Position numbers and translations under genes: made by a program | Notes under the pieces: model-generated | What the model saw: the letters and a program-made list of their open reading frames with translations, nothing else | Databases searched by the model: none | Told to the model about the DNA's origin: nothing | IMG/VR virus record: IMGVR_UViG_3300014911_000001 | Coordinates: 96,001-160,000 of that record | Reading direction: 5' to 3' (one strand) | DNA: 64,000 bases | Source of the DNA: a virus | Part shown: one piece after another, positions 364-52,153 of the stretch | How positions within the stretch are numbered: position 1 is the first letter of the stretch | Layout: the number at the start of each line of letters is the position of its first letter

Positions 364-694
364 TGTTAGGGATGAGATGGAACGGGAGCGCCGTGAAAAG
401 ATTGTGAAGCACGCGCTCCTTGGTGAGTTGATGCCTATTATGATTGATCTTACGCGTCTGGTTACTGAGATACGTCATATACGTAACAAAGATGGTGATG
501 ATGCACCGCATCCTCATGTGAAAGATGATGTGCTTAATAAAATTGATTCATTGGTTGAGTTATTCTTTACGACATATACTGACTTTATGAAGACTTATAT
601 CAATGATATTGATGGTCTTGCGCGTAGTGCGCTTGAGCGTATGATGCAGGAGAGTATGACAATGGGGCCGGGGCCTCGCATACCACGAGAGTAA
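341..694 (+). CDS. Hypothetical protein (helical)
   Basis: 117-aa ORF, GGAGG upstream, tightly coupled to neighbours. Confidence 0.75.
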   Translation: MGISVPNNVRDEMERERREKIVKHALLGELMPIMIDLTRLVTEIRHIRNKDGDDAPHPHVKDDVLNKIDSLVELFFTTYTDFMKTYINDIDGLARSALERMMQESMTMGPGPRIPRE

Positions 695-4439: not shown

Positions 4440-4440
4440 T

Positions 4441-31600: not shown

Positions 31601-34481
31601 TACGACATGGTTGCCGGGTGCACTATATGGCGTATGGAAGTTTGCACCTGCGGGGCCGGCGGCTTCCGCTATGGGTGCATTAATAATGGGTGCTGTTAAT
31701 AAAATGTTAGCGCCATTTTTGCCTGATTTAACAAAGAGTTATGATCAACTGAAAAGGATATATAGAGGTGAGGAGTATGTGCCTGTAAGGAGAGCAAGGT
31801 ATTGGCCTCTATCTTTAACTCCTTGGGAGGGTTATGATATTGAATATTGGCGGCCTTCTCTATGGTTCATTGTAAGACAGCAGGCAAAATACACTCCTGA
31901 TATAAGTGGTAGCAAGATACAGTCCTTGTTACAGGGTGACTGGTTGTTTGGTTATAATCCATTGCGTATGTTTGATCCATATGCTAAGGAAAGACAGCAT
32001 TATTTCTCTAGGCCGGCGCCTCTCACACAGTTGCCATTTTGGGATGTGCCAGTTATAGGGCCGTTTTTAGCTTTAACTGTTGGGCAGGTATTGAAACCAC
32101 AGCAGATGATGCATACAGCCTTTTTGAAGGAGATGTATCCCGGTGAGTATGGTGTGCCGAAGGGTGAAGTTGTCACACCGGAGGATTTATCTAATCCTGA
32201 TCAATATGTATCAGCTATGCAATCCAATCAAGCTGTTGCAATGTTAATGAATAGATATGCGGGGCGGGCTTACAGGCATGTCACAGGAGATATGCTTAAT
32301 AGAGGTATAACAGAAACTCTGTATAGATCGATGGAGATGGCGGGCTTAAGAGGTTACCTAACATCGTTATTATTAGGAACACAGACACCGCTTAATTTCA
32401 GTAGGTATCTAGAAATGTATGGTGAAAACGAAGGGTTTTTATCTGAGTACTGGAACATGGAGCTTAATGATGTAGCTGGTGGATTGTCTGAGATGATAAG
32501 AAGATTCCGGCCTGACAAGCGGATAAATACAGTTAACCCTATCCCCAACCTTATGGCACAATTTTTACCCGAAGGAGAGTATGGTGGTAGCGATTTTCTA
32601 CATGGTGATCCTTATACTAAAATTCCTATGGGTTTCATAAGATTGCCAGGGACTGGATATGAAGCAACACATAATGTAATGCATACATTTCCTGCATCGT
32701 TAAGAATGTTGGGTAAGACAGTAACAGAGATAAGGGACATTATGGCCGGGTGGGAGGATATTATTGAGGAGAGAACGGAACGGGAGCTAAATCAATTTTA
32801 TGATGCCAAAAAGATTGTGCAGGGATTGCTTGAGATATCAGGACAGAATGTTGAGATGGATGTGCAGATTTACGATCCATATAACAACATTGTTGGTACC
32901 GTTGATGCAGTTGTGAGGAGAGGGCGATTTAGGCAACCTATTATTATACGTCCTGTTAGTGAGGAGGAATTTAGGGAGCTTGTTGCCCCGAAGGAGGAGC
33001 ATGCGAGTCAGGTAAATTTTGCTATGAAGTTTTTTGGTGCGAAGACGGGTAAATTGATTTATGTGAATGTAAGATCGCCTGAACAGATTAAGACATATAC
33101 CATCTTTTTTGATCCATCAAGGTTAAGAGAGGATATAAGTGCATTAAAGAGGGCGAGGGAACAGGCTGGTGAGTTGTTAAGGGCAGGAGCTGTTTTTGAT
33201 TATGGTCGTAGTTATAGCTGGTTTGATAGATATAGAATTTTAGCTGATGTTGCTCCTTTATCTGATCAATATAAGCAGGCGCGTGCTATTGTATTGAAGC
33301 AATTGCAACAGGGATTTTTGCCACCTGAGTTATGGGATGAGGTGCATGAGATTGAGCGAAGGCGGCGGCTTCAGCTTTTAAAATATCCTATGTATGTGCG
33401 TCGTTTTACTGGTGAAAATGTTGTTGAAACGGTGCAGAAGCTTTTGCATCCGCCTAGGCTTTCCGGCAGGGAGTTATCGCTATCTTTGAATCCATATTTA
33501 AGGTCGCCTGATGAATACAGTTTACCAGAAAGGATCGTAGGTAGTATCTGGGAGACATTTACACATTTACCAACACCTTATAATAGGAAATTCTTTTTCC
33601 AGTATTCACCGTCAGAGATTTATAAGTATTTCCATTTATATGATCGGGAGTATAAAGCATGGACGCGGCCTATTGAGGATTGGGTTAAGCCACAGGTTAG
33701 GACGATGCTTGCTTCACAAGGCGTAATGGAGGGCGCGGCTTCATGGGCTACAGCAGGTTATGCTGTTGGTAGGTTATACGGCGGGCTTATAGGTGCAGTG
33801 GCTGGATCCATATATGGGTTGATACCTAAGCCGCCGATGATACCGGAGGATGTGGAGAAGGCGCGCGAGGCTTATTCGTATTATGATAAATTGAAATATG
33901 CACGTAACATGCAGTTTTATGTTATGACAGGTAATAGAATATATGAGGAGCGTGCTGAGCGGACCTTATTGGGTGCGAAGAACTTACGTGATTATGTAAG
34001 AGCATTACCACGTTTTGAGCGCCCATTTACTGTAGCGTTTATGAACATAACTGATGAGAGTGAAAGAGAAAGGATAAGGCAGATTATATCACCTGAGGCG
34101 CGTCGTGCCTTGGATGCAGCATGGGCGAGACGTGAATTGCGGTATAGTGTTGAAGAAGGTGGTTATGAAGAGGTACCGAGAACACCAGCTAATTGGGCTG
34201 GTTGGATTTTTGCGATACCTGATGAGGATATTTATGTGAAGGAGCTTGAGCAGCGGGGTGTTGATCCTCTAGATTTTGGTTATGGTTATCATGGTCAGGC
34301 AGCTGCTGTACGCCGTCTATCTGAAGATTTTGCTATACCTGATCAAACTGTAGACGTCGTAAATATTATGGATGTACAGGAAACGATAGTAAGGTCATTG
34401 CAGGCGCAGGGTATTAATGCTTCTGTATCCATCATGGGATTTGATAATAGTAGAAGAGTTGATGTTGTTATTTATAAATAA
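28650..34481 (+). CDS. Tape-measure-like/ejection giant protein with transmembrane segments and a degenerate Cas4-like PD-(D/E)XK domain
   Basis: 1943 aa, basic helical N-half, several hydrophobic/glycine-zipper helices, GTVDAVV...PKEEHASQV segment; tape-measure position. Confidence 0.6.
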   Translation: MTVVRRNKPFLFQSDLARIRTDETLRSRYGWGRTLLRFGVAMASFAVLSYGARSLSRAWRALATSGALSRKFVEGVKVVKKLGLEQGNLLDVILSVSRRARRVAYKYVKWSQDYRDASRLLHFGKALRKIWSGGKASLKGFRKAREAYRRVGLRGALFGAFLRGAERGVGFAILSSAADALTHSFITPADREKTRKYGPVARVKRFFTDAVLFSGLQGLWGVSKVAFPTYIHRYSPQIQRFLTRIGAPTYVAKFYGWRRRFYDYLIRAIEYKQKFTQKLQGANIWQHIKQQMKEHPGLGAIATYLREQIREAHLHAKKSFRRPGGFPPRSGYDTVITMMNYAKEVNVKDPKFAAEIAAQAVGRYKGVSKWRRLLNIERERLTKKQAVAFREMLEKMGFSKSWIETLKGEERKFYENLYYRVMRGPLFHGPGWFEVAGQKFSQYETRYFVKGILQNLYAGRWRGVTRILASAAGLDLYANRRPVFIFHPTMDIPMSVPIPTDEGVRMLRLVTERGNDRVRHGIVFLQNKLYRLSPTEEGGEYFVDRVIENVKLYESPAYNILKRELTQYYIKQRRRTDEIGLRPPGEYVRDIIRKLSRGVDKASLEELVNVYKSTRSTAHIIFGKLLSKKEVREVASQILEQLGASRAQRILQMDEASLIRELEKVIEKPAQVTERLRNKFIYLINASRSRMRTMKDLLNQEFIGSGYAEARARHVIESFLIEQHLTPEIRAKFFSRLAEEQLIGKWIRKPAYTHFFKALAELAPVEMDAEALRSTIKGALNDIVVGWKKLPTVDPFRPISALFQYGGLGIHRLFEPTIEGIRVMGTTVPFTVVREGMSPFKRYTVTSLLFSHHLRRIWGFMDYVSKAPRKFPIIRHLLRRLDPRLADTAHIFPFETNTTGWTASDMIKNLWKPAATLLALGVGYKAVDTFFDESGLFEGTALGEGLTPAILDAYALGRLSLARVLDIAGVTDAARYLEGLMPGSTTWLPGALYGVWKFAPAGPAASAMGALIMGAVNKMLAPFLPDLTKSYDQLKRIYRGEEYVPVRRARYWPLSLTPWEGYDIEYWRPSLWFIVRQQAKYTPDISGSKIQSLLQGDWLFGYNPLRMFDPYAKERQHYFSRPAPLTQLPFWDVPVIGPFLALTVGQVLKPQQMMHTAFLKEMYPGEYGVPKGEVVTPEDLSNPDQYVSAMQSNQAVAMLMNRYAGRAYRHVTGDMLNRGITETLYRSMEMAGLRGYLTSLLLGTQTPLNFSRYLEMYGENEGFLSEYWNMELNDVAGGLSEMIRRFRPDKRINTVNPIPNLMAQFLPEGEYGGSDFLHGDPYTKIPMGFIRLPGTGYEATHNVMHTFPASLRMLGKTVTEIRDIMAGWEDIIEERTERELNQFYDAKKIVQGLLEISGQNVEMDVQIYDPYNNIVGTVDAVVRRGRFRQPIIIRPVSEEEFRELVAPKEEHASQVNFAMKFFGAKTGKLIYVNVRSPEQIKTYTIFFDPSRLREDISALKRAREQAGELLRAGAVFDYGRSYSWFDRYRILADVAPLSDQYKQARAIVLKQLQQGFLPPELWDEVHEIERRRRLQLLKYPMYVRRFTGENVVETVQKLLHPPRLSGRELSLSLNPYLRSPDEYSLPERIVGSIWETFTHLPTPYNRKFFFQYSPSEIYKYFHLYDREYKAWTRPIEDWVKPQVRTMLASQGVMEGAASWATAGYAVGRLYGGLIGAVAGSIYGLIPKPPMIPEDVEKAREAYSYYDKLKYARNMQFYVMTGNRIYEERAERTLLGAKNLRDYVRALPRFERPFTVAFMNITDESERERIRQIISPEARRALDAAWARRELRYSVEEGGYEEVPRTPANWAGWIFAIPDEDIYVKELEQRGVDPLDFGYGYHGQAAAVRRLSEDFAIPDQTVDVVNIMDVQETIVRSLQAQGINASVSIMGFDNSRRVDVVIYK

Positions 34482-37400
34482 TGGCAGTTATAAGGAAAAA
34501 ACATACATATTTGCGTACTTTTACACGCAGGAAGGAGCGGGAGAAGGGCAACCGTTTTGCGAAGTTTGGACTGGGGGTTGCTGCTCTTGTGCCCATTGTT
34601 TATTTGGTCAGGGGGCGCGGCTTCGAAAGGCTACATGATTTTCTTAAGACCTTTGCTGAGGCTTCATATAAGAAAGAGGCGCGGGCTTCAGAAGCATCTC
34701 TATGGGCATATGGGCCTCTTGATAGGATAAAAAAGGCATTTATGGATAATCCATTTTTATCGGTACTGGGTACTGTTACCAAAAAGGAAGCACAAGGAAG
34801 GTCTGTAAGGGAGGTATTGAATAAATTAAAGGATATTGTCGAGCTCTTGCGTGAATATTATTCGGTAGCTGAAATAAGAAAATTATTTAATGAGGATATT
34901 ATTCCTTATGCTGATAAAGCGTCTAAGCTTATTGTTGAGGAGGAAAAGCAATTAGTATATAAGTATCAGTTAATGTTTGAGCGGGCGCTTAAAATTCTCA
35001 CGAGGAAGATTAATGAAAAAGGGTGGCTTCCGCGAGACCCATTTCATTTTCGTCTCCTAAGTAAGTATTTACCACATAGCTACAAATTTGGATTGTTTTA
35101 TGGTACGATGCCGAGTTTTTCGGCGCCTCTATTTGAGATTTCTACAGCTAGTGAGCAGTTTGCACAGATTTTCCAAAGGGAGATAAAGAATCTATCAGAA
35201 AGTGAGGTTTTACTTGGTCAACATGTTGAGCAGGTTATAAAAGATTATGTAAAAAAGCATGTAGTTGTAAATCCTGAGTGGGAGCTTGCTGCTAGTGAGG
35301 TGTTTAAGCATCTATCAGCTGAGGAGCATTTACAGGTCCGAAATCTTGTTACAAGAATTACAGAGCAGGTAGCTAAGTGGTTGCATCGTCATGCCGGTAT
35401 TGATGCAACAGATTTGCCTGATGTGCATGTTGTTATAAAGGCGCAGCGTTATTATGATGTTCCTATGCTAGTTGCTCAGCTGTCGGTTGTTGATCTGCGT
35501 GGGGTCAAAAGGAGTATAGAGATCAAGCTTGGTGTTCCCCAGAAAAGTGGATTGATGGCAGCTATAGGAAATTATCCAACAGCAAATGTCAGATTTGCTC
35601 AAGGTAACAGGGTAAGGTCGATCTTTTCCTTGAAGCTGGAGCGCTTAGGCGAGATGTTTGAGCATGCCTTGAACGATTTATACGAAGGGAAGTCAGAGGA
35701 TTATGTTACCAGACGCATTCATAGAATCATTGGACGATATGATTTATATGGAACTGGGCGTAATGATAAAGCATTCCAGTTGGTGCATTCCATTGTTGAT
35801 AAGGACTTTAAGGATTATGCGGCTTATAATGCTAAAAAGAGATTTTTGAAGCGCGCTGCTGAGTTGGTGCTTGGTGTGAGAAAAGGCAAGTATCGGGTGT
35901 TTATGGATGCTGAGTGGGTTATGGCTGGTATATCGAGTACTGGGACTCAATATGCAGTGACTGAATCCCGCCGGCGCTTGATATGGAGTTTTGCCATACA
36001 AGTTTTTGATGATCTTGGTAATGAGGTTGATAAGTTGGTTGTATTTATAGATCCGAAGACGATAAGCGATGAGTTCTTCATGTCGCAGGTGCGTCGTTTT
36101 GGATTATCAAAGGCAGCTGCTGAGGAGGCATTAAAAGCGGTTAGAGGTCGTGTTGCGATGCCTGCTGGATATGTCAGAGTTGATAGTGAGATGGAAGCCA
36201 GCCGGCTTATATGCAAGAAAATAAAAGACATAATTAATAAATATGGTAAGGATGATCTACTTGTTATGGGTAAGAACTTCTGGAGCTCAGAGGTTGCATT
36301 GTTGGAGCGGGCCTTTAAAGCTGACAGTAATATATTAAATTATATCAAAAGAAAGTTAGTTGATATAGAGGATATATATAGGTTGGTATATGGTGCTAAG
36401 GCTATTAACAGGTCATTAAGTGTTGAGGCTATTCTCGATTATGTAAAGGTATCGGATGAAGGATCGAAGCTATTGGGCCGGCTTCTTAATTATGAACCGA
36501 GGGTTGAGGTCCAAGCGTTTGCTAATTTAGTTAGGTCGCTACATTTTGGTGAGCAAGATAACAGGATTGCATACATCCTATCAAAAATTGCGGAGAGCAT
36601 GGTTAATAATGATCCTGAGTTGCGTGAGAGAGTACTAAGGATTTATGATATTGTAGCGAAGTCACAGGGAGCTGTTTTATCATTTACAACGCAGCAGGAG
36701 TTCATGCAGCGGGCTTACAATTATGTAAAGGAGCAATTGAAATCTGTTGGTGTTGGTTCGCCTAATGCTGCGCGTAAGTGGCGTTTTGAATATCCGTTTA
36801 ATCCGGCTGATTGGGTTCCGCTATTTGTTCCCACCTTGGAGAAACAGAGGTATCAGTTAGGCCGCGGCTTACCTTTATCGGAGGCGTCGAAAAGATTGCT
36901 TGAAACTCTTAAGAAGGAATATGCTAGGCGCGTATTAGGGTTGGGTGAGGCTGATATCAATTATCTAGGACCGGCGCTTATTTCTATGCCATTTAAGAGA
37001 TTCCTAGAACAGCAGATGTTATATAATGTCCGTAGTGTATTTACGATACCTGTCTTCTCAACATTTTTCCCATTTGCTGGCGAAGGACATATGTTTATAC
37101 ACAGGAGACTTACTGAGCTATCGACAGTAGTGCAGGAGGTGATTAGTCAGAAAATTCCGATAAGTAGGTTGGAGAATATGGATGCTCGTATGCAGTTGTG
37201 GGTGAAGCTTTTTGAATCTGCCATGGAGGCTGTTAAGACATCTCCGAAGTTGGGTGAGTTAATTAAAAGCAAATTTAATAATGATATTGTTAAGTTTTTG
37301 AGAGCTGTAGATTTGTCGATTGTTATTGGTAGATATCGTGGATGGATAAAGGATTCTGAGCGGTTGGCTAATGTTTTAGTGCAGTTGTTTCCGGGGTTTC

Positions 37401-40400
37401 CTATCAAGCGTTTTGTTGGTCATGCTATTGGTAGGAATCTAAGAGGTCTTACTATAAAGCAGTATATGGCACTGCGCCGCGGTGTGAGTGCACCAAAAAT
37501 AAATTTGGGGGATATATGGAAGGAGATATTTAGCGACAAAGCAGCTGCTCATCCATTATACGACATGTTGAGTAATGATAATATGTTGAAACTTGGATTG
37601 ATGGATGAGTCTGCTCAGGCAGGTTATGCACAATGTGCATTAATAAGGGAAATCTTTAATAGATTGGTAGAATCGGGGCTTCATCTTACCAACCCAGAGC
37701 AGTACATCAAGTATGGTACTTTCGTAATGACGGACCGGCTTCAGCTTGGTGATAAGGTTGTAAAAATTGGTTATAATGGTAAATTGGTTTTTAATAAAAT
37801 AATTACATCTTATGATCTTACAGGTGTACCTTCATTAGATTTTTCACTTACCTATGAGATAGTTTTGCCAACTCCCTTAAAGTGGGTTACATATTATCAA
37901 AAAGGTATGGGGACAGCACAGCGCTGGTCCTTAAGCCAATTTCCATATTATCTTATAGAACCGGCACGTTTTATGGAGCGTGGTGAATTGGGCATCTTTA
38001 TAGAGACAGAGATGACCCGGCTAAAGGAGGCATTAATTAAAAAATATGGTGTGCGGGAAGCCGCCAATGTTATGTCAAAGATGACAAAGGACCTCAATGA
38101 TTATATGAATAGAGTGGTTAATTACGCTATTAAGGAGCACGGGCTTCCCATCAAACTTACCAGTCCGTTGTTTATATTCAATCCCAAAATGATGGCAATA
38201 GAGGGCAATTATGATTTGTTTAACACATTGACAACAGAACAAAAGGGATTATTGTGGACAGTATTTTTGGAGGGTTTACCTGAGAAGGTGGGAAAGATTG
38301 GTGGATATCCAAGCTTGTTTGATTATCTTGAGGCTAAATTCAAGGAGCATGGTATTGTTGTAACTCCCCAAGAAAGGAGGATATTCAGAAGATATGTACA
38401 GAAACAATATGCGTTGTATAAGAACAAAAAGATAAGCGAAAAGGAATTTTTTGAAACAGTCTTGCTGAAGGACATAGCTGATGAGAGGATACGAAACTGG
38501 TTTAGCAGATTATATTATGGAGATGATAGGGAGCAGCTGGCGCGCTTATTCGATATATATCAGATAAAATTAGGTAAAAGGGTTGTTGAGCTTATTGGTT
38601 TGGGCCGTCATAGCCCCTTTGGGTTGGGTGATACGGCTCTAACTAGTACCTACAAAAGTTTTGTTCGTATACCAATGCAGATGTATTGGGATATCCATCG
38701 CTGGCCTCATTTAGAGGGTATGGCTCAATTTATTGATGCCTTCCAAGCTCAGAATCTACCTATTTATGAGACACTTCTTAAGATGGCTGATATGCTAAAA
38801 ATGAGTCAGTCATCTATTGATGAGTTGGTGAAGGCAGGGGGTATCTATGCTGTACCGGTGCGGCGCTTCTTTGACTTTGTGCGCAAACATATGAATCTTC
38901 TTAGGTCAATAAGGGAGGATATATATGTACCAGAAAAGATATTAGAGGAGGCTCATGGTGATATGGTTCGTGCTGTCCAAATGATGCTTGATCTGGGTGT
39001 ATCGTTAACGGATTTTAAGGAGAATGCTATAAAGTTTGAAGGCGCGCAGGTCCGTGCGCAGGTTGCCAAGGAAGTGCAGGATTTCCTCAGACAGATATTT
39101 GAGGAGGCGCAAGGGAAGCGCGTTGTTATCGATGTAGGCAGGGCAATGTCTGTTTCCTATAAGAACCTTGAGTCGATGATTGGTCAGAATGATGCTATTA
39201 TTAGGGATCTTATAAAATATTTAGAGAGAATGGGTTACAACAAGCTGAAGTATATACCATTGGGGACAAGGGAATTTTGGGATCTGTCATTCCACCAGAT
39301 TGGTAGAGACCAAGTTATTGTTGAGCCTCAGGTTAAGAAGTTGCTGCAATTAATGGCATCGATTGCATCAATTAAGGGTAAGGTGCAAGCAACTGGTGTG
39401 CCATCGGCGCAGGTTAAATTTGAAGAGAGAAATGTATTTTATAAGCAGTTTGTTAATTATCTTGGTTCTATAGCTAGTAGCTTTATAGGCCGGCAATCCT
39501 TATGGGCACGCACTGCTGTAACACATCTTCCTGGTGTTGAGGGTGTTGGACTTCCGTCCTTCTTGCTTTTTAATAAGTCGCGGCTTCTTGACACAGTTGT
39601 ATGGGAGCCATTTACGACCTATGTTGATGCTTCTGTTATTGAGAATCTCAGAGGTATGTTGGAAGCCGCCGGCTTCTCCAAGGAATTTATCGATGCTTTT
39701 TACAAGGGCAGTCCTAATGTAGCATTTTTAGGTATGCCCGGACGTATGCCATTCCACCCCGGTATGGGATTGATAGGATTTATAAAGAGTTTAACCAAGC
39801 AGCAGAAGAAACATGTTTCATCTGTAAGCGATGCCGTTAAAATATATATGGATCCTTTATTGATAACGAAGGTTCTATTAGGTGACTGGGATACAGATAG
39901 ATTGATGGCGTTACTAACAATGACATCTCCGAAGGGTGCTGAGGATATAACAAGGATATGGAAGTGGGTCTATGGTTTATCAGATCAGGATGTTGCATTT
40001 CTTATGTCGTATGGTAAGTTTAGAGCTGGTGACAGGAAGGCTATAGGTGAATTGCAGACATTTTTTACGTCTGTTTTTGAGAAGATGACAAAAGAGCAGA
40101 AGGAGGCATATATACAGAGCAAAGAGTTTGAGGATATGCTCCACAAAAGATTATCAGCCATTGTTGCAAGAATGAAGGAAGGATATTTGAGCTGGTTTGG
40201 TAAGTCTGAGGCAGAAGAGTTAAGCGAGCGGGTCGAGTTTTTAGTGACAGGTGATGTGACGAAGATACCGACAACGGAGGGTAAGGTTATTTATTTACCG
40301 ACTATATTAGCGCAGATGCGTGGTTATACGATGAAGATTGAAAAAATGTGGCCATTTATACAGGAGGCCAAGGAAATTGCGAGGAAGGAAGGAATTCCAT

Positions 40401-41542
40401 TCAAGGAGGCATTAGCTAAGCATATGGCTGACATTTTTGCTAATAGGGAGCTTAGGAATGTACTGGGTACATCGATGGCTGGTAAAGCTGATGTGATAAG
40501 AACAGGGTATGCATTAGCATTGCAGCATATATATAAATTAAGAGCTGAAGGGCTTTCATATCAGGATATAAGTAAGATCATGGGATTAAGCATTCCAGAA
40601 GCATTTGGTCAAGTATTTGATAAATGGATTGCGGCGGGTTCTGAAAGACAGAAGATGATTCTTACATTTGAAAGGGAAATACTCGATAAGGTATTAAAGA
40701 TGAAGCGTGGTGGTTCTCCAGAGGCGATGGCTGAAGCAATAAATAATCTTGCTAATGAGTTGCTGGAGTATAGTAAGGTTTCATCATCTGTTGCGAAGAA
40801 AGGACATGAGTTAATAGATAAATTTGTTGCAGAAATTGATTGGGAGAAGATGGGATTGAAGCCGCGTGATGCTTTATACATGATGGGGTGGTTATTAAGA
40901 AACACGCAATGGACTATCCGTAATTCCAGTTATCTTGTTACGAGACAATCGATAAATAGAGGTCTTATTGAAGCATATGCGATGTTTGCATCCCGTTTGC
41001 TGAGTCAACCGACGGGTCCTACGGTAAGCCCGACATTGTTAGATGCATTGTCGGGTGAGGTATTAAGGGGCATGGCAAGGGAGCCGAAGCCATTGAATGA
41101 ATTACTTGGCGAGCAAACAGCAAATATGAGGTTTAGGGAGGCATTGGCGGGCTTCCTTACAAAAACATTTGAGAATTTATCTAAATCAAGAAAACATAGA
41201 TTGCTATTAGCAGGTGCATTGGCTGGGATAGCGGGATATATATTAAGCGGGCCGAAATTAAGAGGAGATATATTTTCATTTGGTATCGATATAGGCACAG
41301 TGCATGGATTGGAGCCGAGCTTCTTTGATGGTAGATGGACATACCCTGAGTTGCCCCGAGGGGAGGATATAAGGGGTTTGGAGAATCCATATCATAAAAG
41401 GAAAATTTATATTCTACGTAATATAAGGCGCAGGAACCCTGCATTATTTAATGAGTTAAGGAGGCGCGGTATAATTCAAGAGTGGGAAATGTCGGCGCCT
41501 TATGATTACCCACGCAGAGAAAGGAAGGTGATCTATGTATGA
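34481..41542 (+). CDS. Putative virion single-chain two-barrel RNA polymerase fused to a DEDDh-like exonuclease
   Basis: Beta'-like GRMPFH...IYMDPLL...GDWDTD; beta-like LKWVTYYQKG and GEGHMFI; N-terminal FMDAE...GKNFWSSE...HFGEQD. Confidence 0.7.
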   Translation: MAVIRKKHTYLRTFTRRKEREKGNRFAKFGLGVAALVPIVYLVRGRGFERLHDFLKTFAEASYKKEARASEASLWAYGPLDRIKKAFMDNPFLSVLGTVTKKEAQGRSVREVLNKLKDIVELLREYYSVAEIRKLFNEDIIPYADKASKLIVEEEKQLVYKYQLMFERALKILTRKINEKGWLPRDPFHFRLLSKYLPHSYKFGLFYGTMPSFSAPLFEISTASEQFAQIFQREIKNLSESEVLLGQHVEQVIKDYVKKHVVVNPEWELAASEVFKHLSAEEHLQVRNLVTRITEQVAKWLHRHAGIDATDLPDVHVVIKAQRYYDVPMLVAQLSVVDLRGVKRSIEIKLGVPQKSGLMAAIGNYPTANVRFAQGNRVRSIFSLKLERLGEMFEHALNDLYEGKSEDYVTRRIHRIIGRYDLYGTGRNDKAFQLVHSIVDKDFKDYAAYNAKKRFLKRAAELVLGVRKGKYRVFMDAEWVMAGISSTGTQYAVTESRRRLIWSFAIQVFDDLGNEVDKLVVFIDPKTISDEFFMSQVRRFGLSKAAAEEALKAVRGRVAMPAGYVRVDSEMEASRLICKKIKDIINKYGKDDLLVMGKNFWSSEVALLERAFKADSNILNYIKRKLVDIEDIYRLVYGAKAINRSLSVEAILDYVKVSDEGSKLLGRLLNYEPRVEVQAFANLVRSLHFGEQDNRIAYILSKIAESMVNNDPELRERVLRIYDIVAKSQGAVLSFTTQQEFMQRAYNYVKEQLKSVGVGSPNAARKWRFEYPFNPADWVPLFVPTLEKQRYQLGRGLPLSEASKRLLETLKKEYARRVLGLGEADINYLGPALISMPFKRFLEQQMLYNVRSVFTIPVFSTFFPFAGEGHMFIHRRLTELSTVVQEVISQKIPISRLENMDARMQLWVKLFESAMEAVKTSPKLGELIKSKFNNDIVKFLRAVDLSIVIGRYRGWIKDSERLANVLVQLFPGFPIKRFVGHAIGRNLRGLTIKQYMALRRGVSAPKINLGDIWKEIFSDKAAAHPLYDMLSNDNMLKLGLMDESAQAGYAQCALIREIFNRLVESGLHLTNPEQYIKYGTFVMTDRLQLGDKVVKIGYNGKLVFNKIITSYDLTGVPSLDFSLTYEIVLPTPLKWVTYYQKGMGTAQRWSLSQFPYYLIEPARFMERGELGIFIETEMTRLKEALIKKYGVREAANVMSKMTKDLNDYMNRVVNYAIKEHGLPIKLTSPLFIFNPKMMAIEGNYDLFNTLTTEQKGLLWTVFLEGLPEKVGKIGGYPSLFDYLEAKFKEHGIVVTPQERRIFRRYVQKQYALYKNKKISEKEFFETVLLKDIADERIRNWFSRLYYGDDREQLARLFDIYQIKLGKRVVELIGLGRHSPFGLGDTALTSTYKSFVRIPMQMYWDIHRWPHLEGMAQFIDAFQAQNLPIYETLLKMADMLKMSQSSIDELVKAGGIYAVPVRRFFDFVRKHMNLLRSIREDIYVPEKILEEAHGDMVRAVQMMLDLGVSLTDFKENAIKFEGAQVRAQVAKEVQDFLRQIFEEAQGKRVVIDVGRAMSVSYKNLESMIGQNDAIIRDLIKYLERMGYNKLKYIPLGTREFWDLSFHQIGRDQVIVEPQVKKLLQLMASIASIKGKVQATGVPSAQVKFEERNVFYKQFVNYLGSIASSFIGRQSLWARTAVTHLPGVEGVGLPSFLLFNKSRLLDTVVWEPFTTYVDASVIENLRGMLEAAGFSKEFIDAFYKGSPNVAFLGMPGRMPFHPGMGLIGFIKSLTKQQKKHVSSVSDAVKIYMDPLLITKVLLGDWDTDRLMALLTMTSPKGAEDITRIWKWVYGLSDQDVAFLMSYGKFRAGDRKAIGELQTFFTSVFEKMTKEQKEAYIQSKEFEDMLHKRLSAIVARMKEGYLSWFGKSEAEELSERVEFLVTGDVTKIPTTEGKVIYLPTILAQMRGYTMKIEKMWPFIQEAKEIARKEGIPFKEALAKHMADIFANRELRNVLGTSMAGKADVIRTGYALALQHIYKLRAEGLSYQDISKIMGLSIPEAFGQVFDKWIAAGSERQKMILTFEREILDKVLKMKRGGSPEAMAEAINNLANELLEYSKVSSSVAKKGHELIDKFVAEIDWEKMGLKPRDALYMMGWLLRNTQWTIRNSSYLVTRQSINRGLIEAYAMFASRLLSQPTGPTVSPTLLDALSGEVLRGMAREPKPLNELLGEQTANMRFREALAGFLTKTFENLSKSRKHRLLLAGALAGIAGYILSGPKLRGDIFSFGIDIGTVHGLEPSFFDGRWTYPELPRGEDIRGLENPYHKRKIYILRNIRRRNPALFNELRRRGIIQEWEMSAPYDYPRRERKVIYV

Positions 41543-41706
41543 AAATTATAGTTAGAGTACCACCAAATGCAGATATTGTTCGTGTTGAAGCGGCAATACG
41601 TAATGCTTTGATGGCGTATGATTTAGATGTACGGTCGATACAAGTGGTAACAACAGCTTTCGGACAGGAGGAGTATGCCAGAGGACTCGAAAAAACCGAG
41701 GCTTGA
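41539..41706 (+). CDS. Small hypothetical protein (55 aa) absent from the ORF track
   Basis: MKIIVRVPPNADIVRVEAAIRNALMAYDLDVRSIQVVTTAFGQEEYARGLEKTEA; AAGGAAGGTG RBS; ATGA overlap with the upstream stop; fills the gap exactly. Confidence 0.7.
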   Translation: MKIIVRVPPNADIVRVEAAIRNALMAYDLDVRSIQVVTTAFGQEEYARGLEKTEA

Positions 41707-44700
41707 TTACAGGACAGCTATTATAGGTACTGTTCCTGTGATTGTTACAGATTTTAGAGTTGTTGAGAATTTTTCCTACCAGCAGATACAGACGCTACGT
41801 ATGGATAATAATGTTATTTACCAGATACCCGGAAGGAATTTGTATGTTATTATTGGATTAGAATTTCCTGATGGTTATTCCATTAATACAGGACTGCGTG
41901 AGCTCCATGCCATGATGTTTCTTGCTCCCATTGTACCTATTTATAGTCCGTGGCTTAATGACATGGTTATTGCATCGTTTGATCAATATAGAGGGCTTGC
42001 TGAATTAATGGGTGTTAATACAGATGTAAACATTTATGCATTGCGTCGTTTAACGATGAGATCTGTTGAGTCGCCTTATGCTATTGGTGTTGAGATGGAG
42101 ATTGCTCCTATGGATTTAGATGCGGCGCGGCTTAAACCCCAATTCCTTGTGGATGAAGAGGCAGCGCGGGCTAAATCTGAATTTATAGCGAGGTTGTTTG
42201 AGTTATATGAAACGATGAAGAGAAGTGAGGACCCGCTGGCTTATTTGGATGGCTTTACATCTATCTACAATGATTACAAGAGGGCTGTTGCTAATAAGGT
42301 TGTCGACTTCCTATGGCAGTCAGAATTATTTAAAAGGTGGATAAGCATAATGTATCCTGAGGGTGATAAGTCACTTTTACCAGTTCAAGGGGTGCGGCTT
42401 AAGCGGCAGCTTGGCATATGGCGGCAGACACCGTTTGCTAATATTGTTATTCATTATCTTCATATGGCTGATGATATCGTATCGTTGCGAGATGAAATCC
42501 ATAAGTATGTTTCAGATGTGGCTAGTAGTACAGCGAAAATGATCCGTGATTATGTAGCTGATTACGAACAAATTCAGCAGGTTGGCGCGCCTCGACGATT
42601 TTTTCAAGTATTACAGACATTATATAATAGCATTAAAGGTGGCATACGCACCCGTGTTGATAGTTCATTAATGGGTACTATAGCGTTTGGTAATCAGATA
42701 AGAGAGATGTTACTTGAGGTTGCGTTACGCATGGATAATGGGCAGAGGGGTAAGTTTACTAACTATGTGCAAAGGATTCTATCTCTGACGGCGGGGCCTA
42801 ATCTAGTAGTCCCTGAGATGATGATGGAGGGTGAGTCAGCTATTGTTACCATGTCTGATTTTCTTACTAGATTTTTTGCGGAATTAGGTAAGAAGTTAGA
42901 TACGGATTCATACAAAATTTTTGTTGATTTATTTGCTGATGTTATGTCTGAACGTATTGCGTATTGGGAGTTGTTTTCAAAGGTGATGAAATATGAGACA
43001 TTTGATTTTGGTAAGTATCGTGCTACTCCAACCAGATGGGAATATACCGTAACTAATAAATTCGTACCTCTGAGGATTGGTGATGCAGTAGCTCCCTTGT
43101 TGCAACATCTTGGTACTGACAGTCCTATATTTAGGGTGCAATATGCATGTGGTGATGGTCTGGCCATAAGGCAGCTAAAACAGTTAAGAGATGATGTTGA
43201 TAAGGCTGTGCAACAGATAAATGAAATAGGGTCGTATTTCCCTTGGATTACGAGATATATAGAGCCTATAATATTATCCTCAACGGACGGCTTAATTGAA
43301 TTTCTGGGCATGCAGCATGCGGTTTTAGATTCAGTAAGTATTAATCCGATGGAAGAAGCCGCGATGGTTGCTGAGGCTACATGTACATTTGTTGCCTCTG
43401 ATATAACGATTTTTGATTACGAGCAGTTTGAGTTTGCCGATACTGTTGGTGCCAATAATTTATCATGTCTATTATTATTCTATGCATTGCGTAAATGGTA
43501 CCAGGAAATTTTTGGCAAAGACCTTCCTCCGAGTGGTACTGTTGCAGAGACGGTGCAGCCATTAAAGGAAGGTGAAGATATTTCGAAGCTAAGGATTCCG
43601 TTTAAATTGTTTGATGTTATGGATTCACAGAATGTAACGAAGCGTGCATTTCAGTATGCGATGACATTATCCAAAGCTGAGAATCAGAATTATTATAACT
43701 TCACTATCTATAATTCAGATAAAAAGGCTGTATATGCATTAAATGAGGGTGTGGTTACTAACGTAACTAATAATCTGGTTGATGGTTATATAGTTCGTGT
43801 GAAAAACGGTGATTTTGTAACGGAGTATAGGAATCTGGGGAAATTGGCAGAGGATATTAAGCCGGGCGAAAAGGTGTTGGGTGGACAATATTTAGGGGAG
43901 GCGCGCTTCTTTGCTAGTGGAACATATCCAACCGAAGTACAGGAAAAAGAAGTTAAAATGCTACCTAACCTATTAGGATTAGGGGTGCCTGAGGTTGTTC
44001 AAGAATACAAGAAGAAAGTAAAAACATCTGGTCCTGCGCCTTATGGGGTGTTTGTATTATTTATGTATAAAAATATTCCATTGGACCTAGAAATTTATAA
44101 AGGTAAGGAGGTTTTTGAAAAAGCAGCTAATATATCTGCGCCCACAGATATATATGCATATTTTTGGACCCATACTAAGGATGATAAAATAACATGGGCT
44201 GGGCATACCTATGATGTGAAAAATAATCCTTATGTCCAAGGATATGTAAATAGTGTCTTAGGTGGGATACCTATTTTAGAATCAATTTCGAATCGTGTTT
44301 TTGATGAGAAGACATTTTTTGATGTCCTTATTCGATTACTGATGGAGAAATGTATGACATGTGTATCGTCATTTGATATTGCTGGCTTGGAGCAGAAGCT
44401 TGCAAATGAATTGGGTATGGAGCCGGCTTCTGCAACTGATAAAGCTGTTCCAACACAGGAGGAATATGTGCCCGTTCTTGGCCGTCCATACTTTACCCAC
44501 CCATCATTGGAAGAGATGAAACTACCAGAGCCACAATTACCTCCTAAGGTAACTCCGGCACCAGAGGAAGGAAAAATGGAAGTACCTGAGGAGAAAGTAG
44601 AGAAACCGCAGCTTTCTGCACCAAAAGAATTACCTGAGGAGGCCCCGCCAGTAGAGGTGCCGCCTAGTGAACCACCAATGATAGAAGAAGGTGAAAAAGA

Positions 44701-47071
44701 GGAGGGTGATCTTTTAAATAGACTCATAGCACGTTACATGGCGCTTGTATCGCAAGATATGAAATATTTACAGCAGTTACCACCTACCCCTATAGTTGAT
44801 ATGGAAGCGGTGCCTACTGATGATGAACTTATACATAGGAAAAATAGTGGTTTATGGGAGCATTTAAAGCAGCATTACACAGAGTTTGTAAAATTGGAAG
44901 CTGTATTGTCACAGAAATTTGGTGATGAATTCTTTAAGGATTTTGATGAACGGGTAAAAGCTGAGCGTGAGGAATTACGGAAACTAGAAGGTGGTGGATT
45001 ATACCGTTGGGTTGTTGCAGATCGCTACCGTGAAATAATTAATGATGAATATGTGACATATGGTATACCGTGGCAAAGTTTGAAGGATCAGGCACCCTTT
45101 GATGAATTGTTGCCATTGGTAAAACAGAGACATGCTGTTGTTGTCAGTCTTATGAGGAATTTGTTTGAACTAGGAAAGAATTCTTCTGAGCATGATTTCT
45201 GGGCCGCGGCTTCTTCAAGATTTGAAAATAGGCTGTCCTTCTTTAACAATGGTCTTGATCAGATCGCTGCTGAATACGGTGATAATTCAATGGAGATAAT
45301 TGAATTTTATGATAATGCTTTGGTGAAGGAGCAGGATTATTTATCAGCTCTCGAAGAGGCTTATGAGAGTCAGTTGGTTAGGGAGGAAAAGAAAGAATCT
45401 ATAGAGAAAAAGGATATGCCATCCAGTACTATACCACCAGCTGGTACTCCAAATCGTCTGCCTGAGTTAGAAGCAAAATATAAGGAGATCATAGGATATG
45501 AACGAGATCTATTAGAAGCGGCACAGGATTTAAAAGATCCTTATTGGAAGAATGCATTGGAGGAGTTTAACAAGCGTGTGGCTAATTATGAGGGAGATAT
45601 TAAGGAGGCCGCGGGCCCAGATTTAGAAAAAATTTATGAGAATGCTATAGCTTATGAGACAATGATGCTTGATAATTATAAGACCAAATATCAGAAGCAG
45701 AGGGCTATTGGGGATTATACGAAGCCGCCAATGCCCCAGCATGTGGCGCCGGTAACAGTGCCAAAAGCAAAAGTAGTACCACCTCCTAAGGAGATGATTA
45801 TTGTTCCGGATGATGAGATTGAAATGTGGCGTGATTTGTTAGATTTTGTGGCTGATCATTGGATCGGTTCTAGTAAGTTTAGGGATATTGATTTAACAGA
45901 AAAGATAGATGCTACTGATATAGACCATTCTTTCCAGAGTATAAAATCGGCGTTACGCGAGGCTTGGAATCGTTATAGTGAGATAGATCTGAGAGCTATT
46001 GCTGTGCATGTAACTGATAGCCATCCAGCTAGTGATAGCTATCTGGTAGGATCATCATTGTGTAGGCCATTTCTTATAGAGGGTCAAGAGGAAAAGACAA
46101 ATCGTAAAGAGGGAGGTGCATATACAATTTATCATATAATGATTGGTAATGGGTTTAGTAGAAATATTGATCATGAGATAATAGGTTATGATACGCATTA
46201 TGATGGCAGGATAATGACAAGTCGACCATTAACCCAAAAAGCATATCATGTAGGTGGATTGAATCATCTTGCTGTTGCGGTTGCATGGGTAGGTGCTACA
46301 TTTGCGGATATAAGAAGCCCTAATGTACAATCTTTTGCAACAGTTTGGGGAATACAAACAGTTACACCATATGCTTTTATATCATTTTGGGATAATGTTA
46401 TCGAACCAGCTTTACATTCATTGGAAACACCAACATATGATACATTGAGGGAAAGAGCATTTGATGTATTAAGTGATTCTGGATGGATTGATAGTAACTT
46501 CTTCACTAATAAGAAAACAAAGGGAGTTGTACCTTTTACAGAGAAATTCTATGAAGTTGCACCTGTATATGATTTTACTTATTATTTAAAAAATGAGTTA
46601 GAGGTTGCATGGCCTGGGTATGGGGAATTGCTTTCACCTGGCAAAATGTCTGCTAAAGGTTGTGCGTGGAAGCGTGGTGTCAGAGAGGCAGGGGTATATG
46701 TAGAAAAACATGCAGGGAAATGGCGGCTTGGCACTATATATGGTATGAGTAGAATGGCTTGGGATAGATTAGTAAAGACAGTAGGTATTCTCAATATGTT
46801 ATTTAGACAGGCATTAGGTAAGGATATTATTATAGCGGGTCATTCGGAATTATATGGATTTATACCCTCATCATTGGGGCAAAAAGGTAAGGTTTGTCCA
46901 GGATTTAATTTACGTGGTAATCGTAGAGGCAATAATGACTTATTATCAGATATAAAATATGCGAAGGCATATTTACCAGATTTGGGTTATGAGTTATGGC
47001 TATCACCAACCGCAGAGAAATATTGGGAGAAATATTTTAAAGCTGTTATTAAGGCTATAGGAGAATCATAA
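41675..47071 (+). CDS. Giant tail-associated protein with a degenerate M23-like domain and a C-terminal Amidase_2 (N-acetylmuramoyl-L-alanine amidase)
   Basis: AIAVHVT...YHIMI...DGRI...AYHVGGLN...AGHSE...CPG (His/His/Cys Zn ligands); VYALNEGVV...YRNL...KPGEKV..GQYLG. Confidence 0.8.
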   Translation: MPEDSKKPRLDYRTAIIGTVPVIVTDFRVVENFSYQQIQTLRMDNNVIYQIPGRNLYVIIGLEFPDGYSINTGLRELHAMMFLAPIVPIYSPWLNDMVIASFDQYRGLAELMGVNTDVNIYALRRLTMRSVESPYAIGVEMEIAPMDLDAARLKPQFLVDEEAARAKSEFIARLFELYETMKRSEDPLAYLDGFTSIYNDYKRAVANKVVDFLWQSELFKRWISIMYPEGDKSLLPVQGVRLKRQLGIWRQTPFANIVIHYLHMADDIVSLRDEIHKYVSDVASSTAKMIRDYVADYEQIQQVGAPRRFFQVLQTLYNSIKGGIRTRVDSSLMGTIAFGNQIREMLLEVALRMDNGQRGKFTNYVQRILSLTAGPNLVVPEMMMEGESAIVTMSDFLTRFFAELGKKLDTDSYKIFVDLFADVMSERIAYWELFSKVMKYETFDFGKYRATPTRWEYTVTNKFVPLRIGDAVAPLLQHLGTDSPIFRVQYACGDGLAIRQLKQLRDDVDKAVQQINEIGSYFPWITRYIEPIILSSTDGLIEFLGMQHAVLDSVSINPMEEAAMVAEATCTFVASDITIFDYEQFEFADTVGANNLSCLLLFYALRKWYQEIFGKDLPPSGTVAETVQPLKEGEDISKLRIPFKLFDVMDSQNVTKRAFQYAMTLSKAENQNYYNFTIYNSDKKAVYALNEGVVTNVTNNLVDGYIVRVKNGDFVTEYRNLGKLAEDIKPGEKVLGGQYLGEARFFASGTYPTEVQEKEVKMLPNLLGLGVPEVVQEYKKKVKTSGPAPYGVFVLFMYKNIPLDLEIYKGKEVFEKAANISAPTDIYAYFWTHTKDDKITWAGHTYDVKNNPYVQGYVNSVLGGIPILESISNRVFDEKTFFDVLIRLLMEKCMTCVSSFDIAGLEQKLANELGMEPASATDKAVPTQEEYVPVLGRPYFTHPSLEEMKLPEPQLPPKVTPAPEEGKMEVPEEKVEKPQLSAPKELPEEAPPVEVPPSEPPMIEEGEKEEGDLLNRLIARYMALVSQDMKYLQQLPPTPIVDMEAVPTDDELIHRKNSGLWEHLKQHYTEFVKLEAVLSQKFGDEFFKDFDERVKAEREELRKLEGGGLYRWVVADRYREIINDEYVTYGIPWQSLKDQAPFDELLPLVKQRHAVVVSLMRNLFELGKNSSEHDFWAAASSRFENRLSFFNNGLDQIAAEYGDNSMEIIEFYDNALVKEQDYLSALEEAYESQLVREEKKESIEKKDMPSSTIPPAGTPNRLPELEAKYKEIIGYERDLLEAAQDLKDPYWKNALEEFNKRVANYEGDIKEAAGPDLEKIYENAIAYETMMLDNYKTKYQKQRAIGDYTKPPMPQHVAPVTVPKAKVVPPPKEMIIVPDDEIEMWRDLLDFVADHWIGSSKFRDIDLTEKIDATDIDHSFQSIKSALREAWNRYSEIDLRAIAVHVTDSHPASDSYLVGSSLCRPFLIEGQEEKTNRKEGGAYTIYHIMIGNGFSRNIDHEIIGYDTHYDGRIMTSRPLTQKAYHVGGLNHLAVAVAWVGATFADIRSPNVQSFATVWGIQTVTPYAFISFWDNVIEPALHSLETPTYDTLRERAFDVLSDSGWIDSNFFTNKKTKGVVPFTEKFYEVAPVYDFTYYLKNELEVAWPGYGELLSPGKMSAKGCAWKRGVREAGVYVEKHAGKWRLGTIYGMSRMAWDRLVKTVGILNMLFRQALGKDIIIAGHSELYGFIPSSLGQKGKVCPGFNLRGNRRGNNDLLSDIKYAKAYLPDLGYELWLSPTAEKYWEKYFKAVIKAIGES

Positions 47072-50000
47072 TGCCAGAGGATAGAACAAATATTATCTCC
47101 GATCCAAGCTCTAAGCCTACTGGAGATGGGAAGACTAAAGATAAGGGTTATGGGATGTTGCCTCTAACAGCTAATTTGTTTTTAGATGATATGCTTCAAT
47201 TTACGAATGAAGCATTTCCTCTTGCATCTGCGATGTCTATATTGAGTGGTGATTATCATTTTATTGTGCGTAATTGGACGACGGCTTACCCAGATAGGTA
47301 TATACCTGACAGGATTTTAAATAAGAGGGGGTCGACGCCTCTATTCTACTATGATAGTGATATAGGAATTAACAATAAAGTTATACGTGCTCTTGTTAAT
47401 GAGACTCGGTATCAGGCTAATATGATTCTTAATCAGTTGGCGGCGTTTACTAATATGCCGGAGGATCTTATTGAATCTATTAAGCAACAATTAAAGAAAT
47501 TTTATGGACCTGAGGCCGCCAATAAGTTTGAAAATGAAATTAAAAAACATACTTACGGGAAGAAGTTAGATTTAAAGGAATACAGGAAATTTCTTGAACA
47601 ATTTAAAGAGCTTTATTTAGATGATTCGCGGCTTCAGTACTTGCTTGACTCATCGGATAAGCAGACAAGCAAGTTGTTAGGTGGCTTGGATGCGCGGCTT
47701 GGTCTATTATCATGGTTAAATGTCCGCAATTACGCGCGCTTATACATTAAGCTTTTGGAGCTCAAGGAGATATTGGAGCAGATTGGAAAGGGAGAGGGAG
47801 CCGTGCCTCCTGATGCTGATGCGCTTAATCTTATAAAGGCGATGATAATAGCTAAGTACAAGGTTGATAATCCCAAGGCATCAGAAGCAGATATTTCAGC
47901 TAAGGCTGCTGAGATAGATGCTGCTTTTGGTGATGAAGCAAAGTTAGCACAAGTGTTGACAAAATATGGTAAGGAGCTCGCTGACATATATAGTTCATAT
48001 GATAAATTAAGTAAGTTTGTCGATAAGCTTATTAATGTTTGGACAAATGATCCATTTTTTAGCGGGTTGTTATCGGCGTATAGGGCAGAGAATAGAAGTA
48101 TTACTGAAATTTTATGGTTGGCAAGGGATATTGCCCATGTTGATGCCGTGTTTGCGGCTAAAAATGTAGAAGATGCTGTGAATACCTATTTCCAGCATTC
48201 CCTTATGGTGGGTCCTAAAGAATTTGAAACACAGTTAGATATTTTGTACCGCATTCTGGTTACATATCCTCTAGAGGTTGCCTATAAAGTGAACCGAATT
48301 TATCCAACATTCAGGATTTTCCTTGTTCATCCGGGTACGGGGCTTATTTACTCATTCAGAGACTTTTATTCACCAAAGGCTGTTGAGAGTATTGATATTT
48401 ATAGAGACAAGTTAGGCACGGCAGATGTATGTCGTATAACGGTTTCCAATCGGGGTGGTCAGTTTGTAACAGATCTCCCAGCATTTCTTGAGCCACATGA
48501 TATTATTGATGCAGGGGGTGCAAGGACACCTCTTATGTTGAAGCCCGGCATGTATCTTATTGTAAAATTAGGTTATGCTAATTTGGAGAATGATCTTAGG
48601 ACTAGGTTTATAGGGCGCATAACAGATGTACAAATGCAGGAAGGGCGCATTGTTGTTATGGCACAAGGTCTTGGTACTCAGTTGTTGATGGTACCCGGGC
48701 AGGATGAGGATCATAAGGGTGAGATTAAAGTCAAAGATGGCGGAATATTAAGGTTATTGGGGTTTGGTTCTATTATAAGTAGTTATGGGGCGCTTATTGC
48801 TCATTTATTATTGCAGACGCGCGGGCTTGGTGATCTAGGTCGCCGTGTGAGTTTATTCCGTAGGTGGGAGCTAGGGTATCGTGGAGGTATATATAAGACA
48901 CATCGCGGGCCTATCATGTTTAGTTTGTCCAATGCATTAAATAGACTTCTTCATAATACGGCGCATCTTTTACCGTTTTTTGCTAAAAAAATAGTAGGTG
49001 TTTTTAAACATTCACCATTATATCATTTTCTGCCTGCGAAAACGCGTGAGAATATAGATAAAATGATTGATGCCTTGCCTTTATTGCCAACTATAATGGA
49101 TGCATACCGTCATTATCGAGATGTAACACATAATATTGGTGCGCTTATGGAGAATATTTATATTGATGCTGGTGTTGGTGGGGCTAGTACATATACAGGC
49201 GCGGGTAAGTTTGCGTGGGATATATGGGCTCAATACTTGAGAAGTATATTTGGTGGTATTGGACGTGGGCGTTCAGCTAAAGACATTCAATCGCAGCAGA
49301 GACCTATTAATAGTGAGGTGGTTCCATGGGGTATTGAGTACTATACTCGTGCAAAGTCCCTATATGATTGCTTGAAGGAAGTAGCATGGTTCTTCCCCGG
49401 ATATATTTTATATACACCGTTTTATAATGAGGATTTTGTGTATAGTGCGCGGGCCACTATATTTATAGGTCAGAAGACATTTTATTACAGATACAGAGAT
49501 GATTTATATTCAAGGGTTGAGGATGGTCCTGTTATCAAGAAAGCATTATTGGAAATCATTGATGATGCGATACAGAATATAGGTAAATTAAAGAAAGTTG
49601 ACTGGGTTTATCGTTATGGGCAATTGTTTTATCTATTTCCTGATATAAATTCCATCTTGGGCAAGTACAGCTCTTCACGTATGAGGTCATTGCCGACAAC
49701 ACAGCCAGGGAAACTTCCCGGTTATTTAGATCTAGTTTCTGGCGGTCGTGCACATGCTGTTCCACAAACGGTAACAGAAAGTAAAGGTGATATAACCGGG
49801 GAGGAGTTTAGGGTTCAATTGCAGGATCTTAGGACTCTTATCGAAACAGAGGGTGAATCATTACATAAAACGGAGAAGAACATCTTCCACTTAAAGTTCT
49901 TGTTTAGACCTGAAAATTATTCTCCCGATGTTTATAACTATGTATTATCGATGAAGCCGGAGGTTGCGTTGCATATGGTATCAGCGCGCCCGCTTCAAAA

Positions 50001-51674: not shown

Positions 51675-52153
51675 TGGTGGATTTGCACATAAATCATTTA
51701 GGATTGCTCGGTGATGATGTTTTTATCGATACTGATAAGAACGAGTATCTTGCTGATTTTATCGCATTTTTGTTGCGCACTACTCCCGGAAGTATTGATA
51801 TTTATCCAGAGCTGGGTGTAGGTGTTTATGATATGATCGGTGAATTCTGGTCCAAGGAGAAGAAAAAGCACATTACATTGGCTATAAAAAGGAAGCTTAA
51901 TGATCTGCCTCAGATAGGAAACAGAGTCGCTCGTATTACTGTGTCAAGGGTTGTGGAAAAGGGTGATACCTATTTATTCATTGGTATAACGCTTATTACT
52001 GGCGAACGATATTTTTACACATTAGTTATGAATGAACATGGATTAAGGTTATCGAAAGGGGGTAGGGATGAGGTGTATGATGAATATGTAGAAATGTTGG
52101 CAAAGGTAGAGTTTAAGGATGAAGATTTCAATAGCATTATGGAGCTATTATGA
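51674..52153 (+). CDS. gp25-like baseplate wedge/sheath initiator
   Basis: LRTTPGS...YPELGVG..DMIGE motif; precedes baseplate J. Confidence 0.75.
   Translation: MVDLHINHLGLLGDDVFIDTDKNEYLADFIAFLLRTTPGSIDIYPELGVGVYDMIGEFWSKEKKKHITLAIKRKLNDLPQIGNRVARITVSRVVEKGDTYLFIGITLITGERYFYTLVMNEHGLRLSKGGRDEVYDEYVEMLAKVEFKDEDFNSIMELL

Follow-up and report, generated by a model that had tools for sequence, protein, structure and literature searches.

Does a giant gene lying among the tail genes of an uncultured phage encode an RNA polymerase (RNAP)? The question is raised by a window of 64,000 nucleotides (nt), bases 96001-160000 of the IMG/VR virus record IMGVR_UViG_3300014911_000001 (175,796 bp, rated complete by CheckV), in which an open reading frame (ORF) on the plus strand at positions 34481-41542 encodes a protein of 2353 amino acids (aa), referred to here as P0001. 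Among transcription enzymes, the two-barrel polymerases are the most ancient, and their phage versions have repeatedly been missed by annotation. A preliminary description of the window had proposed that P0001 is a highly divergent single-chain RNAP of this type. The ORF is real and uninterrupted, and it lies, as had been described, inside the tail module, between the sheath and tube genes and the baseplate J gene. Alignment with its relatives revealed the signature of a beta'-type double-psi barrel, which is conserved in the family together with an invariant Asp triad. The residues around this triad probably form a genuine two-barrel polymerase barrel, and we lean, by a modest degree, towards the full reading of P0001 as a tail-delivered early two-barrel RNAP.

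For comparison, the corresponding region was read out in 11 known enzymes: E. coli beta', gp96 and gp64 of the Thermus phage P23-45, TSP4, gp66 of phage phi14:2 and six other crAss-type enzymes. In all 11, an R-x-P motif is located 35-39 residues ahead of D-[FY]-D-x-D. The two stretches that had been quoted for this part of P0001, GRMPFHPGMG (residues 1754-1763) and the loop DWDTD, are both present. Pairwise and multiple alignments with the three relatives of the protein, P0002, P0003 and P0004, showed that the loop differs by lineage, reading DWDTD in P0001, DYDGD in P0003 and DFDAD in P0004. Residues R1755, P1757, D1802, D1804 and D1806 are all invariant in relatives sharing 22-29% identity, and so are the Gly preceding the loop, a Tyr-x-Asp-Pro-Leu motif ten residues upstream and the Arg-x-Pro motif 39-47 residues upstream. 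P0001 carries a 9-residue insertion in the loop between R-x-P and the triad. At the level of motifs, R-x-P followed by D-x-D-x-D, as expected for beta', is found at aligned positions in all four proteins. Conservation of the triad had been set beforehand as one of two tests that could overturn the polymerase proposal; the triad is kept in each lineage, and the rest of the beta' signature with it. The loop had also been called non-canonical. This is correct in that Thr occupies position 4, but it was overstated, since the Thr is specific to one lineage (Gly in P0003, Ala in P0004) and crAss gp66 has DFDID.

A bare DxDxD means little, because it appears in 18% of P0001 shuffles and 24 times in the 209 ORFs of the phage. 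For the composite pattern (R-x-P, 30-50 residues, [GASN]-D-aromatic-D-x-D), the expectation amounts to 1.6-3e-4 occurrences per 2300 aa; P0001 is its sole fit in the 209-ORF proteome. Five positions (R, P, D, D, D) had been fixed beforehand from the known polymerases; all five are invariant among the three lineages, in which 14% of the columns are invariant, and the chance of this is about 5e-5. In our reading, a strand-Pro-helix element further upstream and a Gly-acidic turn before R-x-P recall the first barrel half of gp96 and of P0006, a second candidate polymerase of the same phage that is described below.

Only three relatives of P0001 were found: P0002 with 91% identity, P0003 (2268 aa) with 22-23% and P0004, a 671-aa C-terminal fragment, with 24-29%. 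P0002 was the only relative obtained when 5.8 billion proteins were searched through a word index, and an exhaustive phmmer search of 1.84 billion representatives added P0003 and P0004. The pairwise E values for these distant relatives were 3e-47 and 8e-36. The family is very rare, with four sequences among about 1.8 billion representatives. Searches of 50,697 phage records with tblastn gave no match for P0001, and the barrel region of P0003 returned chance matches only, the best of which, to a hypothetical protein (130 aa) from a Xanthomonas jumbo phage, was checked and dropped. When IMG/VR, JGI metagenomes and GTDB genomes were scanned, only near-identical copies were obtained, apart from a 367-aa ORF in the Bryobacterales metagenome-assembled genome JADLDI010000025.1 that weakly matched residues 50-118 of the C-terminal domain (30% identity, E 1e-4 among candidates only). 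This match may be due to chance or to a shared small domain. The P0003 contig comprises 111,781 bp and contains a counterpart of every gene of the tail cluster in unchanged order. Between the two phages the giant gene upstream is 35% identical, compared to 22% for P0001 itself.

A second, beta-type barrel would be located upstream of the triad. The motif GDK...NGK occurs exactly once in P0001 (Table 1) and once in P0003 (residues 1051-1066), at corresponding places and with a chance of 1.4e-3 per protein, and by its sequence it is the best candidate for this barrel. It was paired by hhalign with the K-x7-K-G motif of P0006, a result without significance. Two other blocks had previously been likened to beta, LKWVTYYQKG (residues 1133-1142, nt 37877-37906) and FAGEGHMFIHRR (residues 865-876, nt 37073-37108). 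Both are present in P0001, but the likeness did not extend to the relatives: the lysines K1134 and K1141 stand opposite non-lysines in the 23%-identical P0003, where a KG is located 5 residues away, and the second block retains no more than E-G and one F in P0003, the alignment being poor in both places.

Several results weigh against the reading of P0001 as a tail-delivered two-barrel polymerase. Pfam and PHROGs gave no polymerase match for whole P0001 or for nine sub-regions, and the same holds true for PDB sequence searches with single P0001 and with the family profile. The models PF00623, PF00562 and PF05183 had no match in the genome, PF05183 giving nothing at E up to 10. Comparison of the P0001 family by hhalign with the barrels of gp96, P0006, gp64, gp66-type enzymes and beta' was not significant, and a hidden Markov model that we built from known beta'-type barrels did not list P0001 among its top matches in the proteome. 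The second barrel stands at the level of a candidate, which might be either GDK...NGK or K1255-G1256, and about 710 residues separate GDK...NGK from the triad, compared to a barrel spacing of 180-350 residues in the single-chain enzymes gp96, gp64 and gp66. The conservation statistics are based on only three independent lineages. Furthermore, delivery in the virion, ejection and RNA synthesis are steps that we infer, and the separate candidate RNAP P0006 makes an injected enzyme not strictly required. Of the two-barrel proposal of the preliminary description, the beta' side held, its signature being conserved, whereas the beta-like lysines were not conserved and profiles provided no link to polymerases. 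According to the P23-45 paper (PMC10770324), similarity among many two-barrel families is undetectable outside the loop region, and for this reason the failure of the profiles weakens the polymerase case without excluding it.

Comparisons of other types gave weak indications. When the known barrels were pooled, hhalign placed RxP on RxP and DxDxD on DxDxD, with a probability of 1.5%, and the pooled template was the only one that gave the expected register. For the barrel region of P0003, ESM Atlas features ranked a viral cluster of PF05183, the QDE-1-type RNA-dependent RNA polymerases (RdRP), second among named clusters (score 0.81), which is an independent but weak lead. For residues 1480-1900 of P0001, only unnamed viral clusters and an LPD38 cluster were obtained (score 0.87). 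AlphaFold2 models calculated with four-sequence alignments were of low confidence, with a mean predicted local distance difference test (pLDDT) value of 31.7 for residues 1330-2353 and of 42.0 for the barrel crop.

Based on these data we propose that P0001 probably contains a single-chain two-barrel polymerase that has diverged strongly, in all likelihood a DNA-dependent RNAP, within a multi-domain giant protein that is made together with the tail. The three Asp residues would bind the catalytic Mg, and the second barrel would be contributed by the upstream part of the chain. P0001 might be built into the virion, in the tail lumen or the baseplate region, and be ejected with the DNA, and its C-terminal hydrophobic segment might hold it at the membrane. 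There it would transcribe the first phage genes, possibly including that of P0006, as in Thermus phage P23-45. Delivery in the virion is suggested by where the gene lies, by the hydrophobic segments near the termini and by the precedents of gp66 and gp96.

The candidate P0006 is encoded outside the window by an 830-aa ORF on the minus strand (genome positions 68458-70950). It contains a G-L-K-G motif near residue 193, like gp96, and about 250 residues later the series L-K-D-G-E...K-x-P...H-P...DADGD with beta'-like spacing. Its relatives are close ones only (78-89% identity), and no match was found in Pfam, the PDB or phage databases, including a tblastn search of the 50,697 phage records. By its motifs, P0006 is a candidate for a non-virion two-barrel RNAP. 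Genes for a T7-type RNAP or for canonical beta and beta' subunits were not detected in the 176-kb genome, PF00623 and PF00562 being among the models run. Other parts of the genome carry genes for a primase-helicase, a ribonucleotide reductase and a family-B DNA polymerase that has an exonuclease of its own.

Besides the barrel signature, P0001 contains further conserved elements (Table 1). The motifs in residues 471-693 are ordered as in DEDDh exonucleases and, in the alignment, the last one looks very DnaQ-like in P0003; this likeness is one of motifs only, and Pfam gave no RNase_T or DnaQ match for the region. The sigma-70 region-4 match reached an E value of 0.0035 and 17.4 bits at a cut-off of 25.7 bits, and its G-L-S and two Ile residues are invariant in the family. 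A more elaborate proposal can be formulated from these elements, namely that the P0001 family comprises tail-delivered, membrane-anchored two-barrel RNAPs of contractile-tailed phages, which carry a DEDDh-type 3'-5' exonuclease and a DNA-binding helix like that of sigma region 4 on the same chain and act first in a two-polymerase cascade with the 830-aa enzyme. The P23-45 strategy would then have been invented a second time, independently, and P0001 would be the first two-barrel RNAP to have a nuclease built in. We regard this proposal as tentative and, taken as a whole, as doubtful.

Table 1. Features of P0001 and of the surrounding head-tail module. Positions refer to the window.
Feature	Position (nt)	Residues of P0001	Strand	Remarks
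Terminase	4351-6897		+	
Portal	10382-12802		+	
Sheath, 1094 aa	19943-23227		+	
Three consecutive tube-like paralogues, 285, 392 and 668 aa	23555-27590		+	directly after sheath
N-terminal hydrophobic helix	34553-34612	25-44	+	after a basic stretch; hydropathy scan
DEDDh-exonuclease-like motif set	35891-36559	471-693	+	D476-x-E478; G-K-N599 then E604/D; H688-x4-D693; all kept in P0003
Candidate beta-type lysine motif GDK...NGK	37748-37783	1090-1101	+	
Invariant Lys-Gly, then hydrophobic stretch	38243-38248	K1255-G1256	+	alternative candidate for the beta-type barrel
Beta'-type double-psi barrel signature	39581-39970	about 1701-1830	+	strand-helix element, R1755-x-P1757, Y1789-x-D-P-L1793, G1801, D1802-x-D1804-x-D1806
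Putative Mg-binding Asp triad DWDTD	39884-39898	1802-1806	+	DYDGD in P0003, DFDAD in P0004
Conserved blocks	40457-40708	N1993-V...G2001 and I2067-x-D...L-K-x-K-R2076	+	+190 and +267 residues from the triad; invariant columns
Sigma-70 region-4-like helix-turn-helix	40529-40594	2017-2038	+	below Pfam threshold
C-terminal hydrophobic segment, probably membrane-spanning	41201-41251	2241-2257	+	kept in all relatives
C-terminal domain, about 95 residues	41252-41539		+	most conserved part of the family
1798-aa giant gene	41675-47071		+	sub-threshold M23 peptidase match (residues 680-743 of its product); weak amidase PHROG match (residues 1472-1542)
1337-aa giant gene	47071-51084		+	lysin-like region (phrog_20474, E 7e-18); hydrophobic segment cluster, residues 1189-1235 of its product
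Baseplate-J/wedge gene	52150-53244		+	

All large genes of the window are located on the plus strand and together form the head-tail module, in which the presence of a sheath gene indicates a contractile tail. The genes of 285, 392 and 668 aa all match PHROG 9206, which is labeled major head protein; they look like tube-protein paralogues and are read as such because of this shared match and their position directly after the sheath gene. Four giant genes encoding 1943, 2353, 1798 and 1337 aa are situated between tube and baseplate, and the start of the P0001 gene shares a single base with the stop of the 1943-aa gene that precedes it. The 1943-aa gene comes after two small chaperone-sized genes (225 and 125 aa) and is a better positional candidate for the tape measure than the P0001 gene, which does not directly follow this pair; it is the 1337-aa gene that contains both the lysin-like region and the multi-span hydrophobic cluster. 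The 1337-aa protein might be a tape measure or an ejection protein that forms a channel. It shares 38% identity with its counterpart in the P0003 contig, which also has an SNase domain. The gap of 132 bp right after the P0001 gene (41543-41674) is the sole one of at least 90 bp between ORFs of the late plus-strand module. A scan for promoters and terminators around the P0001 gene found no promoters above shuffles, and when the intergenic regions were searched by k-mers for a promoter word specific to the phage, only the Shine-Dalgarno sequence and AT-rich words emerged. The commonest intergenic word genome-wide is a long Shine-Dalgarno sequence of the AAAGGAGGTG type. The phage proteins are rich in I, V, Y, E, R and K and almost free of Cys (0.1% in P0001). 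Composition and Shine-Dalgarno words fit a thermophilic host outside the Bacteroidota.

This setting would also suit a protein that is not a polymerase. P0001 might have a structural or ejection function in the tail, as a giant tape-measure-like, tail-lumen or channel-forming protein whose conserved acidic loop binds a metal for structural purposes or for an unrelated enzymatic activity and whose likeness to beta' is convergent. The gene sits among tail genes, near giants with wall-degrading domains and membrane segments; the protein has terminal hydrophobic segments and looks largely helical; a bare DxDxD is common, and all homology tests against polymerases were negative. However, conservation extends beyond the three Asp residues to an ordered set, R-x-P / P-L / G-D-aromatic-D-x-D, with polymerase-like spacing, and the residue following the triad differs from the Gly of DxDxDG calcium loops. 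In addition, the tape measure is better placed at the 1943-aa gene, and the membrane segments and the lysin-like part belong to the 1337-aa gene. We consider a non-polymerase role of P0001, the main rival reading, rather unlikely. It is improbable that the polymerase is real but RNA-dependent (QDE-1-like), DNA-synthesizing (PolD-like) or a partner of its own DEDDh-like nuclease in the infected cell or the virion instead of an injected early enzyme: the conserved DEDDh-like motifs on the same chain, reminiscent of proofreading DNA polymerases, in which exonuclease and polymerase are typically fused, the Atlas lead to an RdRP family and the possibility that P0006 performs phage transcription argue for it, but the phage already has its family-B DNA polymerase with exonuclease and its primase-helicase, the P0001 gene is co-oriented and translationally coupled in the tail cluster, and the two giant two-barrel enzymes characterized from phages are both DNA-dependent RNAPs of the virion.

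To our knowledge, giant virion two-barrel RNAPs of only two kinds, crAss-like and P23-45, have been characterized so far. If P0001 is indeed a tail-delivered two-barrel RNAP, it would represent a third kind, and the injection of a cellular-type RNAP would be a recurrent solution across tail types. It would also provide a new lineage for reconstructing polymerase evolution, and one would have to ask how an enzyme of 260 kDa can be stored in a contractile tail or travel through it. Giant virion two-barrel RNAPs as such (crAss gp66, P23-45 gp96) and a non-Gly fourth loop residue (DFDID in gp66) are already known. New would be a sequence-unrelated family in a sheath-bearing phage, encoded by a separate gene and not as a tape-measure fusion, with the catalytic loop in the C-terminal third and with a possible nuclease domain and membrane anchor. 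No published description of such a family was found in full-text literature searches, and its members would otherwise keep the annotation 'hypothetical'.

Compared with cellular RNAP, the layout of E. coli beta', N-R-A-P-T-L-H ... H-P-L ... N-A-D-F-D-G-D, is matched almost position by position in P0004, and GDK...NGK of P0001 resembles GDK...GNKG of cellular beta. The distance of about 710 residues between the two P0001 motifs is close to that in an end-to-end beta-beta' fusion (about 737). In contrast, PF00623 and PF00562 do not match P0001, and other conserved regions of beta and beta' are not recognizable. Enzymes of the QDE-1/YonO type (PF05183) share with the family the DYDGD form of the loop, seen in P0003, and the rank of the PF05183 cluster in the Atlas; unlike P0001, they have 700-1400 aa, are soluble and not associated with virions, and PF05183 was silent on the genome.

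Two virion enzymes are more similar to P0001. As the preliminary description had correctly stated, crAss-like phages package single-chain two-barrel RNAPs for early transcription (10.1101/2020.03.07.982082), and gp66 of phi14:2 is such an enzyme, with 2180 aa and the loop DFDID (10.1101/2020.03.07.982082). It resembles P0001 in being a single chain of similar size and mostly unknown fold, in the non-Gly fourth loop residue (DFDID and DWDTD) and in the location of its gene beside other giant structural genes. The conserved blocks about 190 and 270 residues past the P0001 loop correspond, by spacing only, to the places of the bridge helix and trigger loop of gp66 (10.1101/2020.03.07.982082). The two proteins differ in that they have no sequence similarity and come from different phage types, and gp66 has a barrel spacing of about 350 residues with a 140-residue connector.

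The closest precedent, which the preliminary description had not brought up, is gp96 of P23-45, a tape-measure-fused virion RNAP that transcribes pre-early genes including the gene of gp64 (PMC10770324). The idea that the four giant proteins of the tail module are directly homologous to gp96 was rejected. P0001 itself has no detectable similarity to gp96, and its polymerase signature is located in the C-terminal third and not at the N-terminus. Peptidase-like and lysin-like parts are encoded by separate neighboring genes in the P0001 phage, unlike in gp96; the DEDDh-like region is extra in P0001, and the tail has a sheath, whereas that of P23-45 is long and non-contractile. Nevertheless, both are giant proteins encoded in the tail module, both escape standard annotation, and both carry hydrophobic segments on the same chain as R-x-P ... 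D-aromatic-D-x-D with similar spacing. Moreover, both phages combine a giant of the tail module with a small second two-barrel RNAP of the early region, which is gp64 in P23-45 and would be the candidate P0006 here.

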